The notes under the pieces were generated by a model. The model had not been told where the DNA came from. It ran no database searches and worked only from the letters and a program-made list of their open reading frames with translations. Positions 1,080 to 64,000 of a stretch of 64,000 bases of DNA are shown piece after piece. A program made the translations under genes and the position numbers. This DNA is from Vairimorpha necatrix (Eukaryota). The stretch is from positions 558,001-622,000 of the forward strand of contig CP142732.1 of NCBI GenBank assembly GCA_036630325.1, written 5' to 3'. The first letter of the stretch is position 1; each line of letters opens with the position of its first letter.

Positions 1080-1340
1080 TTCTTTAAGCCCTATTACTGT
1101 TGCATAAACAATACTAAGAAATAATAAGCATGTTCAAGGGCACTTTCTTTCAGACTTGGCCCTTTATTTTCCCCGTTAGTCTAGTCAGAACCTCTCAAGG
1201 CTCTTTTGGGATATACGCTTGGTATAGTCAGTAAATTTAACATCATTTTGTATCTAGTATCAATTTAGAAGGAAAGCTTCGTTGATTATAGTTTTATCTC
1301 TAAGCTAATGTCTAAAATATTGATACTAAATGATATATAG

Positions 1341-1378
1341 TGTTAACCATTTATTTATTAAGGGTTCTAAACCCTACA
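1341..1378 (-). repeat. 3' LTR (38 bp)
   Basis: TGTAGGGTTTAGAACCCTTAATAAATAAATGGTTAACA on minus strand, identical to 4378-4415. Confidence 0.95.
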
Positions 1379-4300
1379 TCCCCCCTCCAGACGGGTAGTC
1401 TCTCCATCTTCTAAACAACTCTTCCTTATCTCTTTCAAATCATAATGCCTCTTTTTAACAATTTTACCATCCAGTAGTCTCACAATATATGAATCATTTT
1501 CACTTATAGCTACGATCCTTCCGCGACCCGTGAATCTTCCCTTGTCTGTTTTCGCACGTGTACCTAAATTTTCTCTCCTAGCGATTCTTACCTCTTGGCC
1601 TACTGTAAATGTCTCTCTGTGTCTTCTCTTGAACCGACCAGCATATTTTCCATTTTCATCATTTTCAATTATAACTTCAGCAGTTTGATCTCTCCACGCT
1701 TCCATCGGCGTACATTTTATTGCTGTATGTAGTGTATTATTATATCCTTTGATTGCTCTTTCTATCTTTTCAGAAATATTCCCATCATTTTGCTTTATCA
1801 ATGTCTCTCTTATAGTTCTGATGCATCTCTCGATTCTACCATTACTCCTATGAGCTTCTAAGCCCACTTTCCTATGTTTAATATCATTAATACTACACCA
1901 TTCTTTAAATCTATTACTTACAAACTCTTTTCCGTTGTATGTCACATATTCCTCTGGAAATCCATCTTCCCTTATCCACTTTTGTAATACCTCTATAACT
2001 TCACTACTCTCTTTACATCTCAAATTCGAACCCCACAACCTTCTAGTAAAGTAATCAATACCCAGTAACACATACCTATTCTCTCCACCTATGTCCATTA
2101 AATCCAACGCCACTTTCTCCAATTTCTTTCTAGTTACTACGAAATCACATCCTCCTGTGTTTTTCCTATTGTTAATCCCACATATTTCACAATTCTTAAT
2201 TACCTTATTAATATGATCTTTCATACCAGGCCAATACCATCTTTGTTTAATGTTATAATAAGTGCCTTTGACACCTCTATGGTTTAACTCCTCATGTACT
2301 CTTGTTATTTCATGTTCTCTACTATCTAGGCTCAATATCTCTTTCACCTCACCTGTGGAAAATTCCCAATACTGTTTACCGTCCTTTTCTTTAATATGTT
2401 TCTGCTTTTTTCCCAAAATTTGTTTTTCGATCACTTCTTTTCTCTTGTTGTCCTTTTCTTTTTGTTCATCCGAAACTTCTACCTGATCATACTGCCTACT
2501 TAACGCATCTGCATCTGTCATCAACTCCCCTTTCACATACTCTATTGTAAAGTCAAACTCTTGTATCTGTTCTACCCATCTGTTTATTCTGTTATTATTG
2601 AAGTATGGCTTATTTCTGATCTCTGCTAATGCTTTATGATCCGTCATCAAATGAAATTTCCTTCCTCTCAAATCACTTTCAAACTTCTTTATTCCAAAAA
2701 ACACCGCCAACATCTCCTTCTCACTTATCGTATATCTTCGCTCGGTAGGAGTCAACATTTTCGATGCCCATTGTATCGGAATCCACTCACCCTCTTTATT
2801 TTCTTGTAATAGAATTGCTCCGATCCCCGTATTACACGCATCAATTCTTACTCTAAATAGCTTTTTTCCGTCCGGAATCTTCAACTTTTTCATATCTCTC
2901 AAGCCTTGCTTCATATCCTCAAAAGCTCTTTCCATATCCTCCGTCCAATTCCACTTAACATCTTTCTTTAAAGCCTCAGTAAGCCTTACTGTTCTATACG
3001 CATAGTTGGGAATAAAGTCTCTAAACCAACCAGTTAGTCCTAAAAATCTTCTTAACTCTCTAACATTCTCAGGTTTTCTATATTCCAATGTCTCCTGCTT
3101 TTTAATCTCATTCGGTCCCATGACCTCCCCATTAATTGTTACTCCCAGCAACATCACCTCATCTTTTTTGTATTGTATCTTTGTTTGGTTTATTCTCAAC
3201 CCACACTCTTTAAACTTTTTAATTACCCTCTCTAGTAACTCGTCATGCACTCTTACGTCTTTACCATGAATAACTATATCATCCATATATACTTCCACGC
3301 CTTTACCTCTGAATTCATCTAAAACTCTGTTCATTACTCTCTGCATTATATGAGGCGAATTCTTAAACCCCATAACCATACTATTCCATTCGTATACTCG
3401 ACCATTCACTTCAAATGCTGTTTTGTGCTTATGGTGCTCCTCAATCTCAATATGATAAAACCCTTCTTTTAAGTCGATAACCGTAAATACTTTTGACCCC
3501 TGTGTGGCTCTCATAATATCCTTAATTAACGGTAGTGAGTACGGGTCCTTGTCAACCAAATCGTTTAACGCCATCAAATTGCTTACCAATCTTACGTCCC
3601 CATTTGGTTTTTCAAGTGCTCTTATTGGACTCCTCCACTCACTTTTGGAACGTCTTATAACCCCTCTATTTTCCAACTTATTCAAGTACTCCTCAAATTT
3701 CACCCTAAGGTAGTATGGCACATTCTGCCCTCTTTTCACAACCTTTTCACCTTGCTTAGTATTTATTGGACACTTCTCTCCTGTGAGATATTTTATCTTT
3801 TCTTCTGATTCTTTAAAAACTTCCGGATACTTTTCAATTAAATTTTCTAACTTATTTACTGTTTTACATCTTTTCCCTTCATTGTTGATAATTGGTTCTT
3901 TCTGTAAAACTTGTTCCTTTTTAATTTTATATTTTTCCCTACCAGCCACACTTTCATGACATTCTCTAGCGTAATGCCCTTCTTTCTTACATATAAAACA
4001 TTTTGTAGTTTCTCTGATTTCTCTTCTTTTCCTATACATCCTAAGATTTTCTTTTCTTTCTTCCCTAAACTCTTTCAACACTTTATCCATAATCTCTTTA
4101 ATCATTTCTTGTCTTTCTTCTGACTCTCTCTCAAATTCTGCTCCTTTTTGTAAGCCTTTATAAATTTCCTCCCAACTGCTCCTTCCGTCACAAAAATTTT
4201 CAAAAATATAATCCTGCAAGTTCGCAGATGCCAAATCCATAACATCTTTCCACTCAACTTTCTCAACTTTCAATATTAACTTTAGTCTCTTATCTATCCT

Positions 4301-4387
4301 AATTGCCTCTTTCTCTAATGTTCTAGCCTCTTGACTACGGGACTCTCTTGTTTCCCTGTTCATCCTTGTGTTCGCCATGTTAACCAT
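1367..4387 (-). CDS. Gag-Pol polyprotein (short Gag, CCHC knuckle, RT, RNase H, integrase); no protease motif
   Basis: CFICKKEGHYAREC; IDLKEGFYH, MGFKNSP, YMDD; IDACNTGIGA; HEELNH...CEIC, LDLMD, SNGRIERC. Confidence 0.95.
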   Translation of the reverse strand: MVNMANTRMNRETRESRSQEARTLEKEAIRIDKRLKLILKVEKVEWKDVMDLASANLQDYIFENFCDGRSSWEEIYKGLQKGAEFERESEERQEMIKEIMDKVLKEFREERKENLRMYRKRREIRETTKCFICKKEGHYARECHESVAGREKYKIKKEQVLQKEPIINNEGKRCKTVNKLENLIEKYPEVFKESEEKIKYLTGEKCPINTKQGEKVVKRGQNVPYYLRVKFEEYLNKLENRGVIRRSKSEWRSPIRALEKPNGDVRLVSNLMALNDLVDKDPYSLPLIKDIMRATQGSKVFTVIDLKEGFYHIEIEEHHKHKTAFEVNGRVYEWNSMVMGFKNSPHIMQRVMNRVLDEFRGKGVEVYMDDIVIHGKDVRVHDELLERVIKKFKECGLRINQTKIQYKKDEVMLLGVTINGEVMGPNEIKKQETLEYRKPENVRELRRFLGLTGWFRDFIPNYAYRTVRLTEALKKDVKWNWTEDMERAFEDMKQGLRDMKKLKIPDGKKLFRVRIDACNTGIGAILLQENKEGEWIPIQWASKMLTPTERRYTISEKEMLAVFFGIKKFESDLRGRKFHLMTDHKALAEIRNKPYFNNNRINRWVEQIQEFDFTIEYVKGELMTDADALSRQYDQVEVSDEQKEKDNKRKEVIEKQILGKKQKHIKEKDGKQYWEFSTGEVKEILSLDSREHEITRVHEELNHRGVKGTYYNIKQRWYWPGMKDHINKVIKNCEICGINNRKNTGGCDFVVTRKKLEKVALDLMDIGGENRYVLLGIDYFTRRLWGSNLRCKESSEVIEVLQKWIREDGFPEEYVTYNGKEFVSNRFKEWCSINDIKHRKVGLEAHRSNGRIERCIRTIRETLIKQNDGNISEKIERAIKGYNNTLHTAIKCTPMEAWRDQTAEVIIENDENGKYAGRFKRRHRETFTVGQEVRIARRENLGTRAKTDKGRFTGRGRIVAISENDSYIVRLLDGKIVKKRHYDLKEIRKSCLEDGETTRLEGGCRV

Positions 4388-4415
4388 TTATTTATTAAGG
4401 GTTCTAAACCCTACA
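4378..4415 (-). repeat. 5' LTR (38 bp)
   Basis: Identical to 1341-1378; followed on minus strand by TGG PBS. Confidence 0.95.
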
Positions 4416-4702
4416 TATAGTAAACTAAAATAATGCCTGAATAATATTGTCTCGGGTTGGGTTATATCCACAATAACAACAATTAAACTACTAAATATGA
4501 TTTAAACCATCCAAGATATTCAATTGCAGAAAATTGCCAAATAAATATAGTTCTTCTTCAAATAAAAAGCCTTTTTCTTAAACTAGCTCTGTTCTGATGG
4601 CAAATTTTTTCTACTACTTGAAGTTTGCTTTTTTCATGCTATTTTTTTTCTTTAAATATTTTTATTTTTGATTTTGTTTGTTAACAAACAAACTCCTTAA
4701 TC

Positions 4703-16693: not shown

Positions 16694-17197
16694 TTATTCT
16701 GAATCTAAATCCGAATCAGTAGAGGTAATAGGCATTACAATGCTGAAAAAAATCACAAGCACAATACAAACAAATGCTATATAAGTCCAAACAGAAGCGA
16801 AGAGTTGATCGAAACGATAGCAAAGATCACGTTTTTGCTCTTCTTTTGGTTTGTTTTCTATTTTGTCATTGGATTTAGGCAAAGAAATATCATTGGGCGC
16901 ATCTTTATCAGGAGACATGGTAATTTTTGTTTCGTCATGGGAATTATTCTCATTGGTTTTTATAGTACTATTTAGGTCTTTATTTGGAGTAACTGCCCTT
17001 TTTTGATGTTCCGTTTTTGAATTAAGAGTATGAAGTTCAAAATTTTGTTCTTGATGATCCTCGCCGATGTATCTTTTTGGCTTTTCGGAGGTCAATGGTT
17101 TATATTCATTTTTAGATAAGAGCATTTGCATTTTCTTTACTTTTCCTTCAATATTCGATGCTAAAATACTTTGAACTAGTAAGCATAAAAATTTCAT
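16694..17197 (-). CDS. Small signal-peptide + C-terminal TM protein, tandem family copy 1
   Basis: MKFLCLLVQSILAS leader, YKPLTSEKPKRY, DETKITM, C-terminal hydrophobic helix; CCC-ATG. Confidence 0.85.
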   Translation of the reverse strand: MKFLCLLVQSILASNIEGKVKKMQMLLSKNEYKPLTSEKPKRYIGEDHQEQNFELHTLNSKTEHQKRAVTPNKDLNSTIKTNENNSHDETKITMSPDKDAPNDISLPKSNDKIENKPKEEQKRDLCYRFDQLFASVWTYIAFVCIVLVIFFSIVMPITSTDSDLDSE

Positions 17198-18507
17198 GGG
17201 AATAAATTTTTTTTTTTATTTTAAAGTGTCAAGTAAAATTTTTTTCAATCGAAAAATTAGTTAAAAACTATTGAGTGTGAAAAACTGGTTATTACATTGA
17301 TTTTAATTCTTAATCCTGATATTCTAAAAAAAACACATTGCTAGATGACGTTTGAATAGGTCAATGCCTAATGTTCTGAACTGTATTTCTAAACATGTCA
17401 AAATAGCTAAAAAAAATCAACGTAAAATTTTACGTTCTAAAACTGGATTTGTGTAACTACTTAAAGTATTTTTTTTTGGTTCTACATATATGTAAAGATA
17501 AAAATTTTTAAAAATTGAGGAATTTGATCTTTAATAAAAATTTTATCTATAATATATTACATAGTAAATTTCGGAGGAAACTTTCGGAATATTTTTATAA
17601 TTTGGTCTGTTCAGAAAGAAAATTTTTTGATGACAGGCATTTTGATATACAAAAAAAACATCCGATTTTTGACAGCCTAAAATCAATATCCCTTTTTATG
17701 AAATTAAGATTTGGAATGAACTTGTTAAACGACTGCTTTATGCTGTCAATATCTACAATGTGTCTTCAGCAGTGTTACAAATAAATTCTTTTGAAGGAAT
17801 GAACCCAACGAACGTGATAAAGCTTGAGGCTCATAAGAGCAAAAAAAAATTTCTCAAGTAAATAGTTACATTGCGCCGGCAGAAGCAAGCTCACAGTGTA
17901 TTTTGATTCGAATTATTTTATAAAAATTTTGATTAATCTTATATTTTTTTTGTAATTATTTAACACTTTTTTTTAATTATTGATACTAAAAACTTCATAT
18001 AAAATATGACAAGCTTAGATTTGTCAAAAAACAATATTTGGAACAAGGTTTCTAAAAATAATAGTACAAATAAAAACGCATTTACAAATAGTATACGTTC
18101 TTTAAATCATTAGAAAAGTTTGAATTCATATTAAAATTGCATGAAAAAATAACTGCAAATAGGTAGTTGAGAGATTACTAAACTACGAAAAAATAAGGTA
18201 AAAATTAAATGAATTTTTTTCGGGCATCTTCGGTCGACAAATTGTGGTATCCCGGGGAAACCCTCCCGGTTATAAAGTAATATTCTAATATACTTCTAAT
18301 AAATTGTTTTTTATTGGTAACTGTCCCTCTGGACTCTCTCTCCTGACGCTCTTTGGTCCTCTGTTCCATCTCCTTTTATGTGTACCCTTCCTTTTCTGAA
18401 AATATATTTATAGTAAATTTTATTCATGAAAATTCAATGAGAGTTTTGACAGGGAGAGAAATAAAATAAATGTTGAAGACTAACAGTCTACAACATCCTG
18501 CCCCCTC

Positions 18508-21378
18508 TCAAAGCTTTAGCTGTTTCCTGTGAAACCATCCTACTAATCCATGTACTTTGTACCATAATCCATTTTTTCCCTTTTTGCACACCTTGTATGG
18601 TCCTATAAATTTTTTATCAAGTTTGTTTCTTGAAAAGTTCTTCACATAAACACTTTCTTCGATTTTAAGCTCCTGATCATTAGTTTTCTTCGGGCTTTTA
18701 TCTGTTCTTATTATATTGATATAAAAGTTGTTTTTTATTCTAAAGGGATCGTAAAAATTTACTCCCGTTTCCAAGGACATCGGAGATATCTTAATTTTCC
18801 TATGCCAATTTTCATTCAATCTATGTTCAATAAGGCCTGTCAATTCTTTTATTGGTCTTCTTTTATAGATTCGTAAACTTTCGCCAATTGTTTTATTTAT
18901 TCTTTCACTAATTCCATTGGAACTAGGGTGGTAAGTAGGCGTTTTAATATGTTTAATACCTTTGTTACTGAAATATCTTGTGATTTCTTGAGAAATATAC
19001 TGGGTGCCATTATCACTTATAAAATTCTGTGGTTTTTTATATTTTTTAATCCAAGTCTCTATGCAATTCATAATTTCTGTCGAATCTGCCTTGTTAACAA
19101 ATCTAATTTGAGATATTCTCGAGTAAACGTCTGTTATTGTAATAATATATATCTTTCTCGGTTTATCGGAGATTTCTAAATCTCTAGCCAATATCGGCCC
19201 ATAAATATCACTGCTAATGGTGTGAAATTTCTCTTTTGAGGTGATCGTTTCTCTTCTACATTTTACTACTTGGTTTTTATTTTCTTTACATTTTAAACAC
19301 TTTGCAATGACTTCTTTAATATTTTTCTTAATCTGTGGTATATCGAAATATTTTGAAATATTATTGTACGTTACGCTACAACCTGCGTGTCCTGATATCT
19401 CATGTATATATTCTAACATAAATTTAATCTTATTAACCGGAAGTGTGATCTTTGATCTGAATTTTGACTTTAAATTTATCATTCTTTGTTCTTCAAACAC
19501 CTCATTCCCAACACATTCTCGTATAGTTCTTATGTAATCATCTTCGTTATTTTTAGTTTCCTCTGTAATTAACAACATTCTAGATAAATAGTCCGCTATG
19601 TTATTCTCTTTTCCTTTGATGCTTGAAATATTAAAATTATATTCGTTTAGTAGTAATTTCCATCGTTCGATGCGGGACGATATCTTCCTATTATTGTAAA
19701 TACAGTTTAAATTGTCTGTCTTAATTTCAATATGATATCCCTTAACTATATTTTCATAAAACTGCAATGCCTTTATTATTGCAAATAGCTCCTTTTCCAC
19801 TATCGAGTAATTATATTCGGTAGGTGATAGTTTTTTACTATAATGTCCTATCACTCCATGCTCTTGGAACAAAACTGCACCTATACCGGAATCGCATGCA
19901 TCTGCTTGTAAGTAAAATACTTTTGTAAAATCCGGGAAGTTTAAAGTTGCTTTCTCGTGAATGATACTCTTTACATCCTCAATTATTCCCTGTTCAATAT
20001 TTGTCCATTTAAATTTGTCATGTTTTAATAACTCACTGATCTTAGCCATTTTAGAACTAAGGTTTGGTACAAAAACTCTATACCAATTCAAAACCCCCAA
20101 TAATCTTTGTAAATGCTTTTTCTTTGTGGGTTTGATATCAAAAATTTTATTTTTCAAATACTCTTTATCTGCTCGAATCGAGTTCTTGCTTATGAAATAT
20201 CCCAATACTTTAATTTCTTTCATATATAATTTTGTTTTCTCAAAATTAATTTGTACTCTTTTCTTAAAAAGGCATTTAAGCACATCTATTAGTGCTTTAT
20301 CATGTTCATCTTTGTTTTTCCCAAAAACTACAATGTCGTCTATATATACGAAACAGTTTTTTATCTTACCTAATATTTCCATCATGGTTTTTTGAAAAAC
20401 CTTTGGTCCCGACTTAACACCGAATGGGACTCGATTATATTGATAGTGTATGTTCCCCACTATAAATCCAGTATATTTTTTGGATTCTTCATCTAATGGA
20501 ATTTGATTGAATCCATTTCGTAAATCTATGGATGAATAATACTCCATTCCTCCCAATGCTTGGAGTTCTTTAAATATTTTTGGTATGCAATTTACCTCAT
20601 CAGAAATTTCCTCATTTAATTTTCTATAATCTATAACCATCCTTATTTCACCATTCTTTTTATTTATAAAGAACGCGGGACTAGAGAAATTTCCTTTTCC
20701 TCTTTCAATAATTCCCAATCCTAGTAATCTGCCTATTTCTTTTTCGGCTTTTTCTTTCATCTTAACGTTAATCTCATAACCCCTTGATTTTAATTCAAAT
20801 TTATTTTCTGAAACTTTTAGTTTGTATGGTTCAACATCCATACTCGTAAATTCTTTATTAAAGTGTTTGTATTTAATTAAAAGGTTATAAAGTTCAATAT
20901 TCTTATTTATTTCTAATCCTTCATCTGCTACGCATAGTCGGTCAATCATTATCTTGTCTAGCGTCTTTTCTGTCACTTCTTCATAACCAATGATTTTAAT
21001 TATTTCCTCATCACAAATTACGACCTTATTTTTGTAATCTAAAACACAGTTATTGTTAAACAAAAAATCTCCTCCTAAAATTACCTCATGCGTACATCTC
21101 TCAAAAATATATGGTTCAATATTGTAATTCTTATTCACTCCTTCAAATTTAATTTCAAATTCTGTAGACTTATTACTAGTTATGACTTCTCCGTTTGCTA
21201 TAACTGTTCTAATAGCTTTATTTTCTCTTAGTGGTAAATTTAATTTCTTAGCCAAGCTTTCTGAAATAAAACTTCTACTGGCTCCACTATCTAATAATAC
21301 TTTAATATTGTGTTCCTTGATTTTAGCTCTTACAATGATTTCTCTAACCGAATCTTTTTCTTCTTCCATGATGTTCAT
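18508..21378 (-). CDS. Pol (protease, RT, RNase H, integrase); frame stays open up to 21507
   Basis: LLDSGA, YIDD, ADACDSGIGA, HEISGH...CLKC, SDIYGP, SDNGTQY, SNGISER. Confidence 0.95.
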   Translation of the reverse strand: MNIMEEEKDSVREIIVRAKIKEHNIKVLLDSGASRSFISESLAKKLNLPLRENKAIRTVIANGEVITSNKSTEFEIKFEGVNKNYNIEPYIFERCTHEVILGGDFLFNNNCVLDYKNKVVICDEEIIKIIGYEEVTEKTLDKIMIDRLCVADEGLEINKNIELYNLLIKYKHFNKEFTSMDVEPYKLKVSENKFELKSRGYEINVKMKEKAEKEIGRLLGLGIIERGKGNFSSPAFFINKKNGEIRMVIDYRKLNEEISDEVNCIPKIFKELQALGGMEYYSSIDLRNGFNQIPLDEESKKYTGFIVGNIHYQYNRVPFGVKSGPKVFQKTMMEILGKIKNCFVYIDDIVVFGKNKDEHDKALIDVLKCLFKKRVQINFEKTKLYMKEIKVLGYFISKNSIRADKEYLKNKIFDIKPTKKKHLQRLLGVLNWYRVFVPNLSSKMAKISELLKHDKFKWTNIEQGIIEDVKSIIHEKATLNFPDFTKVFYLQADACDSGIGAVLFQEHGVIGHYSKKLSPTEYNYSIVEKELFAIIKALQFYENIVKGYHIEIKTDNLNCIYNNRKISSRIERWKLLLNEYNFNISSIKGKENNIADYLSRMLLITEETKNNEDDYIRTIRECVGNEVFEEQRMINLKSKFRSKITLPVNKIKFMLEYIHEISGHAGCSVTYNNISKYFDIPQIKKNIKEVIAKCLKCKENKNQVVKCRRETITSKEKFHTISSDIYGPILARDLEISDKPRKIYIITITDVYSRISQIRFVNKADSTEIMNCIETWIKKYKKPQNFISDNGTQYISQEITRYFSNKGIKHIKTPTYHPSSNGISERINKTIGESLRIYKRRPIKELTGLIEHRLNENWHRKIKISPMSLETGVNFYDPFRIKNNFYINIIRTDKSPKKTNDQELKIEESVYVKNFSRNKLDKKFIGPYKVCKKGKNGLWYKVHGLVGWFHRKQLKL

Positions 21379-21428
21379 TTCACTTCTTCTTGGAAAATTC
21401 TTATCGTAGTCATTTCTTTTTCCGTTAT

Positions 21429-22295
21429 TTAAAAAACAGTCAACTGAATTATGACCATTGTGCTTATGAAATTTGCACCACTTCTTTTGTAGAGGGAAAT
21501 ATTGTTCCTAAAATTCTTAGTAGCTGTTTCGTGCTTCCTCATATCCATGTTGTTGTTTCTTAACTTTAAAATTTCTTCCTCCATCGTCTTTAGCTTCTTC
21601 ATATATGCATCCAAATTATGCACATCAAGACTTTCAATTAGTATTCTCTTCGTTTTGCTTCCTAAACCCTTCTTGAAGCATTCCCATAGCTTCCTGTTGT
21701 ACTCTTCTCTGCTTATCTTATGGGCAATACTATAATATTTTATATAACTATTGATGTATTCATAATACTCACTTATCGACTCAAAATTTTCTTGTCTTGC
21801 ACTGGATAATTTATCAATCCATTCTTCCGCTCTATCAATACTATAGGCTCTACTTAGAATTCTTTCAGTAATTTTACTTAATTCTCCTTTAAATACTTTA
21901 TCATCAATTGACTTATCACTTATTAAATCTCTTAAGATGAGCTCATACTGCTCACTGTTCCATTTATTTCTTAAACTTATTTTTTCGAATGTTTCTAGCC
22001 ATTCACACATATCAAAACTATAAATATCCTCTATGATATTTAACTCGGTCTCGATCTTCATATCCGTTCCTTTAACGGTGTAACTTAATTTCACTTTCTT
22101 CTTGTTAACCTCACTATGGTTAATCTTTTTGTAGCTCGTGCTCAAAATACTCGCACTTGAATTCAAGCTGTGGTATCCCGGGGAAACCCTCCCGGTTATA
22201 AAGTAATATTCTAATATACTTCTAATAAATTGTTTTTTATTGGTAACTGTCCCTCTGGACTCTCTCTCCTGACGCTCTTTGGTCCTCTGTTCCAT
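21429..22295 (-). CDS. Gag-like ORF
   Basis: Lies upstream of pol; RQENFESISEYY major-homology-like motif; true start uncertain because the ORF begins inside the LTR. Confidence 0.8.
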   Translation of the reverse strand: MEQRTKERQERESRGTVTNKKQFIRSILEYYFITGRVSPGYHSLNSSASILSTSYKKINHSEVNKKKVKLSYTVKGTDMKIETELNIIEDIYSFDMCEWLETFEKISLRNKWNSEQYELILRDLISDKSIDDKVFKGELSKITERILSRAYSIDRAEEWIDKLSSARQENFESISEYYEYINSYIKYYSIAHKISREEYNRKLWECFKKGLGSKTKRILIESLDVHNLDAYMKKLKTMEEEILKLRNNNMDMRKHETATKNFRNNISLYKRSGANFISTMVIIQLTVF

Positions 22296-22731
22296 CTCCT
22301 TTTATGTGTACCCTTCCTTTTCTGAAAATATATTTATAGTAAATTTTATTCATGAAAATTCAATGAGAGTTTTGACAGGGAGAGAAATAAAATAAATGTT
22401 GAAGACTAACAGTCTACAACACAAATGAAACCCATTTAGCATTTTTTTATCAAGTTTGACTTTTTTTTCCAGATTACAATATTCAGGCTCATGTCGATGA
22501 ATTTTATTATGGTTTATTTTTTCTTTCGTTAAAATCACCTCCGCTTTACAATTCATCAACATGATCACAAGAACTCTTTAACATGCAAAAATTATAGACA
22601 CTCAATTTGTAGATAATATTATATATTTTGTTATCATGTTACATAAACTAAGAAACATAGATATTATTATTTTTATGTGGAGATTCATTATTTTTGTAAT
22701 ATTGAGAGAAATAAAAATCAAAGAAAGAAGT

Positions 22732-23224
22732 TTATTCAAAATCCGAATCTATAAAGTAATAGGCATTAAAATGCTGAAAAAAATTACAGGCACAATACAA
22801 ACAAATTCTATATAAGTCTTAACAGAAACAAAGAGTTGAAGGAAACAATAGCAAAGATCACGGTTTTGCTTTTTTTGGTTTGTTTTCTATTTTGTCATTG
22901 AATTTAGACACAGAAATATCATTGGACGCATCTTCATCAGTAGACATGGTAATTTTTGTTTCGTCATGGGAAATATTGTCATTGGTTTTTATAGTACTAT
23001 TTAGATCTTTTTTTAGAGGAACTGCCCTTTTTTGATGTTCCGTTTTTGAATTAAGAGTATGAAGTTCAAAATTTTGTCCTTGATGATCCTCGCCGATATA
23101 TCTTTTTGGCTTTTCGGAGTTCAATGGTTCATAACCATTTTTAGAGAAGAGCATTTGCATTTTCTTTACGTTCCCTTAATACCGATGCTAAAATACTTTG
23201 AACTAGCAAATATAAAATTTTCAT
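22732..23224 (-). pseudogene. Tandem family copy 2, frameshifted
   Basis: High nucleotide identity to 16694-17197; indels after MKILYLLVQSILAS and before the TM segment. Confidence 0.85.
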
Positions 23225-24287
23225 GGGCGTAAATTTTTTTTTATTTTAAAGTGTCATGTAAAGTATTTTTTTTAATTGCATAAATAAAAACGCCTAAACG
23301 TTTTATAAATCTGTTGTATACATTAATTTATACAATGTAAGTTTTGGTAATCTAAAAAGATAAAACACACTTTAATAACGTTTAAATAGTAAAATATCTC
23401 ATGCTCTATACTGTTTTTCTAAAACATGTCAAAATTTCTAAAAAATTATTCGTTCACAAAAAAAATAGTCTATGCTTTCAGGCTCTAACTTTATTTTTTG
23501 CGTACCTATATAATGTATTTTTGCTTCGATTCATCATCTATATAAAGTTGAAAAAGTTTATAAGTAAAAGTTGTGATTATTTTTAAAAATCTTATTATCA
23601 ACATAAATATTAAAGTAAATTTCGGAGGTTAATTCCGAAAAGAATAAAGTTTTAGGATGCTCGGGGAGAGGCATTATGGTGATAGATATTTCAAAAGACG
23701 AGAAAACATTAGACTTTTAACAGGATAATCTCATGCGTCTATCTATGTAATAAAAGTCTGTAAAGAACTTATTTTATGTTTGCTTTTGGACGTCAAATAT
23801 CTCTAATGTTTCGTCAGTAGTATTCCAAATAAATACATTTCGAGGAGGTAATACCAAGAAGGTATCAGACTTGGGCTATAAGATAGCAGAAAATAATATA
23901 AGTATTTATAAGAACAATATTAGGTTGGCAGGCAAAATCCAGCCCCTTAGTAAATTTAATGCAAATTGTTCTACAATAATAATGAGATAATTTTAGATTT
24001 TTTTGTCATTATTAAACACTTAAATTAAAATTTTTCAACTTTACAATTATATGACAAGAAAAAATTTAGATTAAGTGACAATAAAGGATTTGAATATGAT
24101 TTATTAAAAATAATAGCTAAAGTACAAACGTGTTTACATATAGTATATGCCCTTTTAATCATCAAAAGCATATTAATATTCATATGAAATTATAGAAAGA
24201 AAACAACTGCAAAAAGTTAAGTCGAGAGAAACCATTACTATGAAAATGAGGATAAAATTAAAATAAAAATATTATATATGTATGATA

Positions 24288-37078: not shown

Positions 37079-38083
37079 TTATTTAGATAAAATTCTTTCA
37101 GAATCAAACATAGAAATAAATTTCTCTCCTTCAGCAATTTCTTCTTCTGTTTTCCTTGGTGAAAATTCCGGAATATAAGCTGGTTCATTAAGTACTGCTT
37201 GTACTTCTTTAGATAAGAATAATTCTTCGAGACTATCAGTAGTAATCATTTTCTTTGGAAGTGTAAACTTCTTTAATATTCTTGATTCTTCATTGAATTT
37301 ACCAAATAATTTCTCTAATTTTTTAAATGCGGACTCTGTCCACATGACAAGCCTGCCAGCGTGGCCACCAGGGGCCAATTCGAAAATATTAAGTTTATTT
37401 ATGCTGAGCTGATCAACACCAGGAATATTTCTGAAAGCTTTAAGCTCCACAGGACTGTCATGAATAAGAAGAAGACCTTTTCTCATTCTAAATCTTCTAT
37501 TTCTCATTTTACCCTTTGTTCCTCTTAAAGTTTTACTGTCTTTAACTCTTTCTACTTCTTCAGTCAGATTGAAATTTTTAAGGAGTTCGAAGGCGTCTTT
37601 AGTTTTCTCAAATTTCTTTAAGTCGTCACTGACGACCAAAGGAATATTTTTCAAGTTTTCGATTTTATGTCCTCTTGATTCTACGAATGAAGTTTTAGCA
37701 GATGCTGCGATGCTCATGGCCAAGGCTATTCTTCTTGTATTTAGTACGATTTTTCTGCACCATCTTCTCATTGTAGTAGTAGGATGAGCCATTCTTCCTT
37801 TTCTACAGAAATTTGCGAATGCTCCTTGTCCAGATCTTCTTGATCCTCCTCCACCAATTCTTGGGCATCTTGCGATTGCTCTTCCTGTTCCCCATGAGAC
37901 AGCAGAGTGCTGCATCCCTGCGTCAGGAGAGACAGCGTATGGTTGTCTCAAGTTTAATCTTTCAAGAGAATGAACTTGTTCGATGATATCAGATCTGATG
38001 TCTACAGAGAAGACATCTGGTAAGTTTACTGTAGATTTTACAGTGTTCCCGTCTAATTCGTAAATGTTGATTTTACTGTCCAT
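37079..38083 (-). CDS. RPL4: 60S ribosomal protein L4 (uL4)
   Basis: [46 protein letters not shown]. Confidence 0.98.
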
Positions 38084-38572
38084 GTAACCCTTCTTTATTT
38101 ATTTTTTTTATAAATTTATGCAAAAAAAATATAAAAAGAAAAATCCAGCATAAAAAAGAAAGAAAATAATATTTTAAAAAATCAATTTTTATAATTGAAT
38201 ATTTATGTCTCAGAGATTTTATTTTAATAGAATTTATATATAATAATTAAAATAGATCTTTTATATAATAATGTCAAATAGATCTTTTTTTATAATAATT
38301 AAAATAGATCTTTTATATAATATTTACAAATATTCTGGATTTTAGAGACAGCACTCATCTACAATGAAATTAAGAAGAAGGCCTTGGAATGCTGGGGACT
38401 GAAAGATTAAGAAATAGATCATGTAACGAAAATAATTTGTATATTTTTTTAACTTTGATATGTCTAACAAATTTAATTTATAGAAAATAACATTTTATTT
38501 TCTATTTGTTTCTGTGATTTGAAACAAATTCAAAACACAGAAAATAAATTAATATTTTCTTCTAAATAATAA

Positions 38573-62758: not shown

Positions 62759-64000
62759 TGTTATATATTCTTATATTTCTGAACCCCAATTATGAAAAAT
62801 AAATACATGGGGGCGATACCGAATCGTGAGCTAACAAGTGTTGGCTGGGAATAAGAGGCCGGAAGGTTATTAGAAGAGTTTATGAGGGTTGTTTGATGGA
62901 CTAGTATTGTCTAATTATGATTTTGAGAAGAATGTAAAAAGGGAGATTTTTGATCTTGGAACTGATGGGTTGAAAAATTTTATGGTTAAGAATATTAAGA
63001 TTGAAGATAATTGGAAAGTTATGGAAACCAAATTAGAAGAACTGGTTATAGAACAGGAGGAAAAAAGGGATAAGAGATTATGGATGATTGAGGAGGTCAC
63101 AAAGATGGTAGCAGAGGATATCAGAAATATTAGTAGAGAGGAAAGAATATTTGTGAAGAGAAGAAGTATAAGATGTCATAATTGTTCAAGAATTGGACAT
63201 AAAAGTCAGATGTGCTATTATAGATATAGAAATGTTAAGAATAATGACGAATGTGAGAAGATTAATAAAGAAGGTAGCAGTAGCTGCGATGAGGAACGTA
63301 TAGGAACACATGGAATGCGAAAAGACAAAAGAAGCAAGAATGGAAGACAAGAAATAAAAGAAGTTATGATGAGGTAGAAAAAATCGGATTAACATTAGAA
63401 GACATAAGAAAGAGATATATGAACGTTAGAAACAACGAAGAAGAGAAAATAAGTTATTGTAAAATCGAAAAGTTCAGAATCAGAACTGAAGAAGGTAAAA
63501 AAGTTGTAAGGAAAGGTCAGCAGGTGCCACAAGCGCATAAAGAAGAGCCGAAAAAATATATTCAGGGGTTAGAGACAAGGAATGTCATGGAAGGAAGATC
63601 GACGTCGGAATGGTGAAATCTGATTAAAGCTTTAGTTAAGCCAGATGGAAGTATAAGACTGGTTAGCAATCTCATTGCATTTAATGATTTAGTAAAGAAA
63701 GACCCGTATGAATTAGTGGACATTAAGATATCATAAGGAACACGCAAGGGTCTAAGTTTTTAGGTGTTTAAGACCTTAAGGAGGCTTTTTTCGGGATCGA
63801 AATAGAAGAGCAAGATAAACATAAGACCGCATTTAAGAATGATAAGATAGTTATGGGTGGAATAGTATGGTCATGAGGTTTAAAAACTCGCCCCAGATCA
63901 TGCAGAGAATTATAAATAAAATTTTTGAAAAACATTTGTGTGGTAAAACAGAAGTGTACATGGACGATATAGTGATTCATGCGAAGACTAGAAAAGAACA
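62759..64000 (+). mobile_element. Degenerate Ty3/gypsy element of the same short-LTR, protease-less type; runs off the window
   Basis: Candidate 49-bp LTR 62759-62807 (TG...CA) + PBS TGGGGGCG; gag with CHNCSRIGHKSQMC; RT pieces KPDGSIRLVSNLIAFNDLV, FKNSPQIMQR, EVYMDDIVIH with stops and frameshifts. Confidence 0.85.

Follow-up and report, generated by a model that had tools for sequence, protein, structure and literature searches.

A compact 3075-bp Ty3/gypsy-derived element of Vairimorpha necatrix with 38-nt long terminal repeats and no detectable protease

Results

The P0001 element and its terminal repeats

This study examined a 64,000-nt stretch of the genome of the microsporidian Vairimorpha necatrix (assembly GCA_036630325.1, contig CP142732.1, positions 558,001 to 622,000 of the forward strand; hereafter the window, numbered from its first letter). 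Near its start lies a retrotransposon of the Ty3/gypsy type, which an earlier reading made from the letters alone (the sequence-only reading) had described as a Gag-Pol without an aspartic protease. The element was found to be a complete unit of 3075 bp (1341-4415, minus strand) with a single open reading frame (ORF), whose 1006-aa product is referred to here as P0001. Its features, in the order of the element strand, are as follows.

4416-4420, minus strand: duplication of the target site (TSD), 5 bp, CTATA, 5' side; the same five bases directly flank both repeats
4378-4415, minus strand: 5' long terminal repeat (LTR) of 38 nt, TGT...ACA, identical to 1341-1378; unitigs of the DNA run X1 break inside it
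4364-4377, minus strand: putative primer-binding site (PBS) TGGCGAACACAAGG, directly after the 5' LTR and within the ORF (codons M-A-N-T-R)
1367-4387, minus strand: single ORF of 1006 aa plus TAG stop, an open frame taking up 3021 of the 3075 bp (98%)
1379-1388, minus strand: polypurine tract (PPT) GGAGGGGGGA, abutting the 3' LTR and within the ORF (codons L-E-G-G)
1341-1378, minus strand: 3' LTR of 38 nt, containing the stop codon of the ORF and AATAAA hexamers
1336-1340, minus strand: 5-bp TSD, 3' side, matching the 5' flank

The window contains exactly two copies of the 38-nt repeat TGTAGGGTTTAGAACCCTTAATAAATAAATGGTTAACA (minus strand, 4415-4378 and 1378-1341); they are 100% identical, and none of 100 shuffles gave any match. 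With their TGT..ACA ends and the CTATA that flanks both copies on the element strand, the repeats have the hallmarks of LTRs, namely direct TG..CA repeats bounded by a TSD of 4-6 bp, at a length far below the usual range. The positions of the PPT, which abuts the 3' LTR, and of the TGG that follows the 5' LTR are those of the corresponding signals of LTR elements.

The coding sequence overlaps all of these signals. The first in-frame ATG (4387-4385) sits inside the 5' LTR, the second is formed by the last base of the LTR, an A, and the following TGG (the CA/TGG junction), and the TAG stop (1369-1367) occupies positions 10-12 of the 3' LTR. Upstream of the ATG, the LTR has GGG and CCC motifs, and it also contains two overlapping AATAAA hexamers; these may act as promoter and poly(A) signals, respectively, within these 38 nt. 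GGG/CCC-type motifs are given in the V. necatrix genome paper for the upstream regions of 77% of the genes and 54% of the predicted transposons (PMC10759460).

A relative with 66% identity, L001, ends in a homologous PPT and a homologous 38-nt TGT..ACA sequence that holds its stop codon, and the flank beyond is unrelated. The family N-terminus M-x(n)-M-A corresponds to the translated LTR end and PBS, with M-A being conserved across the family, and at the C-terminus relatives end in ...EGG(C/D/M)xV, which corresponds to the PPT and the start of the LTR translated in different frames. The LTR can fold into a 6-bp hairpin, AGGGTT-TAG-AACCCT (-5.9 kcal/mol), with the stop codon in its loop, of which L001 retains only the GGG...CCC parts.

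Read support for the element comes from one public DNA run (X1), in the form of unitigs and contigs. Unitigs of depth 60-65 break inside both repeats, the flanks having a depth of 1-4 (depth is not copy number here), and one contig runs along the repeat as far as its outer end (1378), beyond which its flank is a different one, pointing to another insertion or a solo LTR. A tandem duplication or a circle junction was considered as a source of the direct repeat and was rejected in view of the TSD and PPT, the TGT..ACA ends, the LTR homologue in L001 and the independent flank junction. A scan of genome contigs for the LTR/PBS junction pattern gave six matches, of which L088 is unrelated and the other five, on long contigs of bacterial metagenome-assembled genomes (MAGs), are presumed, unchecked, to be due to chance.

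Domain organization of the P0001 polyprotein

In a Pfam search at E<=1, P0001 was found to contain a zinc knuckle (129-144), RVT_1 (259-418), RT_RNaseH_2/RT_RNaseH (481-611), Integrase_H2C2 (690-741) and rve (766-839). Combined with AlphaFold models, the following layout was obtained.

4007-4348, minus strand: Gag remnant, aa 14-127; all-helical in the AlphaFold model, with three short helices and one 56-residue helix rich in E, K and R
3959-4000, minus strand: CCHC zinc knuckle CFICKKEGHYAREC, aa 130-143; identified by its motif, zf-CCHC scoring 17.8 bits against a cut-off of 20.8
3857-3946, minus strand: disordered linker, aa 148-177, scoring <50 in the predicted local distance difference test (pLDDT) of the full-length model; it takes the position expected of a protease
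2978-3856, minus strand: reverse transcriptase (RT), aa ~178-470, with YMDD at 367-370; RVT_1, and alignment to the Ty3 RT 4ol8 at E 6e-56
2492-2947, minus strand: RNase H region, aa 481-632; RT_RNaseH_2 and RT_RNaseH, and the full-length model
1430-2329, minus strand: integrase (IN), aa 687-986, with an HHCC zinc domain, a DDE core and a small beta C-terminal domain; Integrase_H2C2, rve and the model

The knuckle residues C130, C133, H138 and C143 are shared by 29 of 29 aligned sequences. The linker that follows is variable in length and sequence within the family, with no conserved column between C143 and ~E204. The pre-RT segment LIEKYPEVF begins at aa 183 and GEKVVKRGQNVP at aa 213. The gap of ~35 aa that had been claimed between the knuckle and LIEKYPEVF is indeed short, and its exact value had to be corrected to 39 aa.

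The AlphaFold2 model of aa 1-270 (29 aligned sequences, pLDDT 78.8) shows helices at 14-37, 46-52, 55-65 and 72-127 and, past the knuckle, a helix at 144-163 and disorder at 165-175, after which the first RT elements begin. The full-length model reached a pLDDT of 79 with 27 sequences.

With regard to the Gag remnant (aa 14-127), no Pfam family was matched, Retrotrans_gag included, and a Foldseek search of its fold against the PDB gave nothing at E<=1e-3. VIA-align, run against structure representatives, returned only generic helical matches with Z<=6.2, a value too low to carry meaning for helical models; a resemblance to the Arc capsid C-lobe (Z 5.4) is weak and tied with unrelated helical proteins. 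A profile-free search with the Gag part (aa 1-165) among 1.84 billion representatives gave 69 matches at E<=1e-3, none of them protease-bearing, which is a weak test since no full-length family member was among the matches listed. The matches spanning the helical domain were all fragments of 45-210 aa, and the others covered the knuckle only.

Absence of a protease between Gag and reverse transcriptase

No protease family was found in P0001 by Pfam at E<=1. The pol ORF (18508-21507) of element B, a second Ty3/gypsy element of the window, served as positive control in the same run and gave five or more protease families at residues 47-167, including Asp_protease_2 at 59-148 (E 1.1e-12) and RVP_2 at 47-167. 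The D[ST]G motif is absent from the 1006 aa of P0001 and from the other two frames of 3600-4420.

The spacing of the flanking domains leaves no room for a protease of ~100 aa. The end of the knuckle (144) is separated from the start of RVT_1 (259) by 115 aa in P0001, and in element B ~115 aa lie between the end of the protease (~167) and the start of RVT_1 (281). Given that these two intervals are equal, the whole interval of P0001 can be attributed to the RT N-terminus and the linker. Residue 66 of the Ty3 RT 4ol8 aligns to residue 222 of P0001, so that a Ty3-like RT N-terminus maps to ~157; residue 112 of the foamy-virus protease-RT protein (PR-RT) aligns to residue 160, and alignments with the cauliflower mosaic virus RT begin at 178. 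By the Ty3 and foamy-virus alignments, the RT starts within about 15-35 residues of the knuckle. In the Ty3 Gag-Pol 7q5b, ~330 residues separate the knuckle from the position aligned with residue 223 of P0001, versus ~80 in P0001.

The structural models agree with this assignment. A Foldseek search against the PDB gave nothing at E<=1e-3, the best weak rows being the Ty3, Moloney murine leukaemia virus and foamy-virus RTs and retroviral nucleocapsid. In the full-length model no unassigned beta domain of ~100 aa is present, the structured parts being the RT, RNase H, the integrase and a beta domain of ~55 aa (932-986). No retropepsin was thus found between Gag and RT, and a divergent protease fold was not seen in the AlphaFold models, by Foldseek or by VIA-align. 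The sequence-only reading had stated that P0001 has neither a D[S/T]G motif nor a protease, nor the room for one; the Pfam search, the motif scan, the protease profile described below, the models and the fold searches confirmed the first statement, and the Ty3 and foamy-virus alignments the second.

Protease loss as a trait of the clade

Relatives of P0001 were collected with aa 1-500 at E<=1e-3, and the best 120 of 170 were examined, P0002-P0048 being the top 47. These 47 show 35-70% identity, many are 985-1043 aa long and lie on contigs of only 3035-3160 bp, and none has a protease family on record. The named sources of P0001-P0048 are Nosema granulosis, V. necatrix and Enteropsectra breve, together with a contig binned as a 'Clostridium' MAG.

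The short spacing is found throughout this group: the knuckle lies 99-178 aa from the S.W..P motif in the 34 family proteins in which both landmarks were found, versus 257-375 aa in nine protease-bearing relatives. The longer linkers of P0013, P0023 and P0042 consist of charged low-complexity sequence. When 27 full-length proteins were searched with Pfam at E<=1, protease families appeared in only one, the distant P0051. A protease hidden Markov model (HMM) of our own, iterated from 3 seeds to 58 protease segments, was applied at E<=1 and matched none of the 48 proteins P0001-P0048, versus 58 of the 74 in P0049-P0122; some of the 16 negatives in the latter set are N-terminally truncated.

Trees were calculated from full-length rows, fragments being left out and the protease columns being excluded by a fill threshold. 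The FastTree input comprised 939 columns and 49 rows, 26 of them protease-less and 23 protease-bearing; IQ-TREE was run under LG+G4 on 923 columns and 28 rows (16 protease-less, 12 protease-bearing). Both trees unite all protease-less rows in a single clade (support 99), which is nested among protease-bearing lines and has the protease-bearing P0050+P0051 as its sister (support 99 and 96). Element B lies far off, grouped with protease-bearing V. necatrix and N. granulosis proteins. One change of state is sufficient, and the presence of protease-bearing lines on both sides indicates a loss; we are highly confident that the protease is absent and that it was lost once, for the clade as a whole. 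Since none of the 48 proteins has a protease and the clade is monophyletic in both trees, the absence is no accident of the two copies in the window. The proposal of a family trait was upheld in this respect, and close RT relatives that keep a protease were looked for among P0001-P0048 and not encountered.

On the basal branch of the protease-less clade, P0046 and P0048 exhibit a capsid-like N-terminal part of ~250 aa, devoid of a CCHC knuckle and joined directly to the RT. This longer N-terminus indicates that Gag was remodelled after the protease had been lost. A metagenome scan with the family alignment A1 gave 80 generic Ty3/gypsy loci (24-34% identity), none of them from the protease-less clade, and a scan of viral contigs gave 28 pattern matches, none of them a relative.

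Selection and state of the window copy

Between P0001 and L001, the nonsynonymous divergence (dN) ranges from 0.14 (RT, RNase H) to 0.47 (knuckle and linker) and the synonymous divergence (dS) from 1.2 to saturation, dN being lower than dS in all regions, linker included. The protease-less clade is under purifying selection.

The window copy differs from the high-depth X1 contig at four positions, one of which is synonymous. Codon 817 (window 1937-1939, minus strand) encodes a tyrosine at the position of the second catalytic aspartate of the integrase DDE triad. This aspartate is kept in at least 90% of alignment A1 and is present in 26 of the 26 other aligned members as well as in the high-depth X1 contig. 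The window copy further carries an isoleucine at the near-invariant threonine 515.

Other elements of the window and of related contigs

Two further elements of the window were compared with the P0001 element.

18238-22421, minus strand: element B, Ty3/gypsy, 4184 bp, LTRs of 258 bp; one gag and one pol ORF, the latter encoding a clear retropepsin
62759-64000, plus strand: element C, second member of the protease-less clade, degraded and running off the end of the window; closest to P0014/P0016, another subfamily

The LTRs of element B are 99% identical. The gag ORF (21429-22301) has its start within the 5' LTR and shares ~80 nt with the pol ORF, which is read in a different frame. Named sources of B-like proteins with a protease are V. 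necatrix, N. granulosis and Hamiltosporidium. Element B is flanked by stretches of ~250 nt (window 17000-17270 and 23029-23270) that are 88-94% identical and 6.03 kb apart, and it may lie inside another repeated unit or a local duplication.

Element C is interrupted by an in-frame stop after ~20 codons, and its frame changes at least twice. The candidate 5' LTR, ~49 nt long (62759-62807), ends in ...ACA/TGG, the 3' copy being outside the window. The relative at 62886-63616 had been said to share the spacing between knuckle and RT of the P0001 element. This did not hold in this degraded copy: the distance from the end of the knuckle to the KVV(K/R)(R/K)GQ landmark is ~94 aa, measured across a frame change, versus 70 aa in P0001, both being far too short for a protease.

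The total-coding layout was also encountered in a protease-bearing cousin. The element of P0053 (1071 aa; L003:229-3592, 3364 bp, on a contig binned as a bacterial MAG) consists of one ORF between 58-nt TGT..ACA repeats, with the ATG at the CA/TGG junction and the stop inside the 3' repeat; a target duplication matching these repeats was not seen. Given that the protease-bearing L003 shares the layout, the total-coding design with micro-LTRs is older than the loss of the protease. L003 and the protease-less L001 come from one metagenome bin, and a further copy, L004, is degraded. Contigs with microsporidian retrotransposons (the records of L001-L005, and of P0004, P0053 and P0321) have been deposited in MAGs titled Clostridium sp., Turicibacter sp. 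and Lactobacillaceae, probably because contigs of high AT content and high copy number were binned wrongly.

Discussion

Maturation by a self-encoded retropepsin is, to our knowledge, treated as a universal step for LTR retrotransposons and retroviruses. The explanation that we put forward for the P0001 element, and which we hold at about even confidence, is that it is a complete and extremely compact member of a microsporidian Ty3/gypsy-derived clade that lost its protease once, then diversified, and works without retropepsin maturation. Its product is one chain of 1006 aa comprising a small helical Gag remnant, the CCHC knuckle, a disordered linker of ~30 aa, RT, RNase H and integrase. The start codon is made at the obligatory junction between LTR end and PBS (CA/TGG), with the putative PBS and the PPT being coding and the stop lying in the 3' LTR. 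The uncleaved multidomain protein would bind its own RNA via the knuckle, reverse-transcribe it and integrate the cDNA, so that a ribonucleoprotein, and not a matured capsid, would be the replicating form.

That the polyprotein functions uncleaved is the part of this explanation reached by elimination; we favour it with slightly less than even confidence. It is in line with the linkers at the domain borders, which are disordered, variable and devoid of conserved columns. RT-IN and PR-RT fusions are known to work uncleaved, as in the beta subunit of avian retroviruses and the PR-RT of foamy viruses, which means that cleavage is not required in principle. Further points in favour of an uncleaved chain are that Gag has shrunk to a small helical domain, a long E/K/R-rich helix and a knuckle, and that it has no detectable family in common with the Gag of element B, the one protease-bearing element seen in the window.

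It is also conceivable that the clade is partly non-autonomous and that the retropepsin of co-resident elements, either of the B type or of the closer P0050/P0051/P0053 type, cuts the polyprotein in trans. Element B lies intact, with almost identical LTRs, in the same window, B-like proteins are named from several microsporidia, and L001 shares its bin with L003; this co-occurrence would give the opportunity for borrowing. Retropepsins, however, act within particles, as part of Gag-Pol, and the Gag of P0001 shares no detectable family with that of element B, which makes co-packaging unlikely; co-assembly with such a helper would accordingly not be expected. The age and diversity of the clade, which has members in at least three genera of microsporidia, speak against a helper as well. 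Its linkers offer no conserved column that could be a common cleavage site, although poor conservation is the general rule for retropepsin sites. On balance, we consider dependence on a helper unlikely.

Processing by the host is an explanation that we rate as improbable. Cellular proteases would cut the exposed linkers between knuckle and RT and between RNase H and integrase and thereby free the domains. The models show the linkers at aa 148-177 and ~633-640 with low confidence or as disordered; their counterparts in the family are charged, differ from protein to protein and can be much longer. Against this stands the fact that, as the known fusions illustrate, such cleavage would not be needed in principle.

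The view that the protease-less copies are dead relics, i.e. decaying deletion derivatives whose transposition has ceased, is largely refuted and very unlikely to be correct. It could draw on the degraded state of element C and L004 and on the catalytic substitution in the integrase of the window copy. Nevertheless, many intact ORFs of ~1000 aa are present in different organisms, the monophyletic clade has a long internal diversification, dN is much lower than dS, both the TSD and the LTRs are free of mismatches, and the high-depth X1 contigs carry the consensus catalytic residue. A highly divergent protease hidden in the N-terminal or linker region is barely credible, as the unassigned stretches are only helical (14-127), disordered (148-177) or the ~55-aa beta domain (932-986), and all sequence, motif, HMM, model and fold searches were negative.

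If the polyprotein works as proposed, the clade may, as a more tentative suggestion, represent the smallest autonomous LTR retrotransposon design so far (~3.0-3.1 kb, with 38-nt LTRs and all cis signals overlapping coding sequence). It may likewise be the first Ty3/gypsy lineage shown to be permanently without a protease of its own and probably without capsid maturation, its single uncleaved protein acting on its RNA and converging on the ribonucleoprotein lifestyle of non-LTR elements.

Several points weigh against these proposals. The long, disordered and charged linkers that would tolerate an uncleaved chain are ideal targets for host proteases too, protease-bearing elements such as element B occur in the same genomes, and a Gag:Pol ratio of 1:1 is unusual among capsid-forming elements. 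No tRNA was found within the window by ARAGORN, and hence no primer matching the putative PBS there. The 100% identity of the LTRs says little on the age of the insertion, as just 38 nt are compared. Because of the tyrosine at the catalytic aspartate of its integrase, the window copy, though its ORF is intact, may be integration-defective or inactive; sibling copies carry the family residues. With regard to the literature, the summary of Xu 2006 given by Gill 2008 describes nearly all N. bombycis Ty3/gypsy elements as Gag-protease-RT-RNaseH-integrase (PMC2474625). A full-text literature search gave no report of a protease-less clade of LTR retrotransposons or of LTRs below ~76 bp; such elements may have been catalogued earlier in Repbase or Dfam or described differently in Xu 2006.

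Comparison with known systems

By descent, as judged from the phylogeny of its RT and integrase, the P0001 element is a member of Ty3/gypsy that departs from the canonical gene set. It resembles canonical Ty3/gypsy elements (Metaviridae, e.g. Ty3) in its RT-RNase H-integrase order, with 4ol8 (E 6e-56) and 7q5b (E 9e-63) as its best PDB matches, and in its CCHC knuckle, TG..CA LTR ends, 5-bp TSD, PPT and the position of a putative PBS starting with TGG. In contrast, P0001 is without a retropepsin, and it lacks ~250 aa that Ty3 has between its knuckle and the RT position aligned here. Its Gag of ~128 aa belongs to no recognisable capsid family, its LTRs measure only 38 nt, and one ORF makes up 98% of its 3.1 kb. 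The protease-bearing cousin L003/P0053 is alike in its total-coding layout, TGT..ACA repeats, CA/TGG start and stop in the 3' repeat, whereas P0053/L003, P0050 and P0051 retain the retropepsin and a longer, capsid-like Gag.

The use of a polymerase polyprotein without self-encoded proteolytic maturation is known from DIRS/Ngaro, Penelope-like and non-LTR elements and from the hepadnavirus polymerase. These differ from the P0001 element in having a tyrosine recombinase or an endonuclease, or no integration, while the P0001 element, of Ty3/gypsy ancestry, combines a DDE integrase with true LTRs. Membership in DIRS/Ngaro was ruled out by the DDE integrase (rve, Integrase_H2C2) and the plain direct LTRs. 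Self-priming of the Tf1/sushi type was rejected as well: the single ORF would fit, but there is no protease, and by eye the 38-nt LTR contains no stretch complementary to the PBS.

Other Ty3/gypsy elements of microsporidia (Nbr of Nosema bombycis and groups 1-3 of Anncaliia algerae) share with the P0001 element the type of host, the single polyprotein ORF and the grouping in microsporidia-specific clades (PMC4202319). Parisot 2014 describes these microsporidia-specific groups and their single polyprotein ORF, and the word protease has 0 occurrences in the available text of that paper (PMC4202319). Unlike the P0001 element, the elements presented in the accessible descriptions are not characterised by micro-LTRs or by protease loss (PMC4202319, PMC2474625). 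According to the V. necatrix genome paper there are 109 retroelement genes, for which structural detail is not given in its accessible text (PMC10759460).

TRIM and SMART/FRetro129 elements likewise have very short LTRs, TGT..ACA ends and a 5-bp TSD (PMC3281118). FRetro129, with 292 bp and 85-bp LTRs, was then called the smallest LTR retrotransposon; LTRs of 85 bp are referred to as very short by Gao 2012, where most reported LTR retrotransposons are put at >4 kb (PMC3281118). These elements are non-coding and non-autonomous, whereas the P0001 element encodes RT, RNase H and integrase and has LTRs of less than half the length of those of FRetro129. A classification among the non-autonomous TRIM, LARD, SMART or TR-GAG elements was ruled out by the intact RT-RNase H-integrase ORF.

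Implications

If true, the existence of a diverse and selected clade that does without retropepsin maturation would show this step to be dispensable. It would also define a minimal set of genes and cis elements for LTR retrotransposition, in which an LTR of 38 nt still supplies U3, R and U5. The recognition of a complete 3075-bp unit with 38-nt LTRs shifts the picture from a missing domain to an extreme overall compaction. Questions that are made testable in this way include the lower limit of LTR length, the need for capsid maturation in the absence of an extracellular phase, and the role of Gag:Pol ratios. As regards annotation, such elements will be overlooked or wrongly filed by LTR finders with a minimum near 100 bp and by domain-based classifiers that demand a protease.

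Surrounding sequence

The 64-kb window is AT-rich (21-36% GC), with dense gene packing and no evident introns. Its genes include a DUF5092 gene and a gene for the ribosomal protein uL4 (37079-38098, minus strand), whose product has 99% identity to that of V. necatrix, with microsporidia alone among the named relatives that come next. Downstream of the P0001 element, the non-coding stretch 546-617 of the window contains two tandem 34-nt copies with 97% identity, 38 nt apart.

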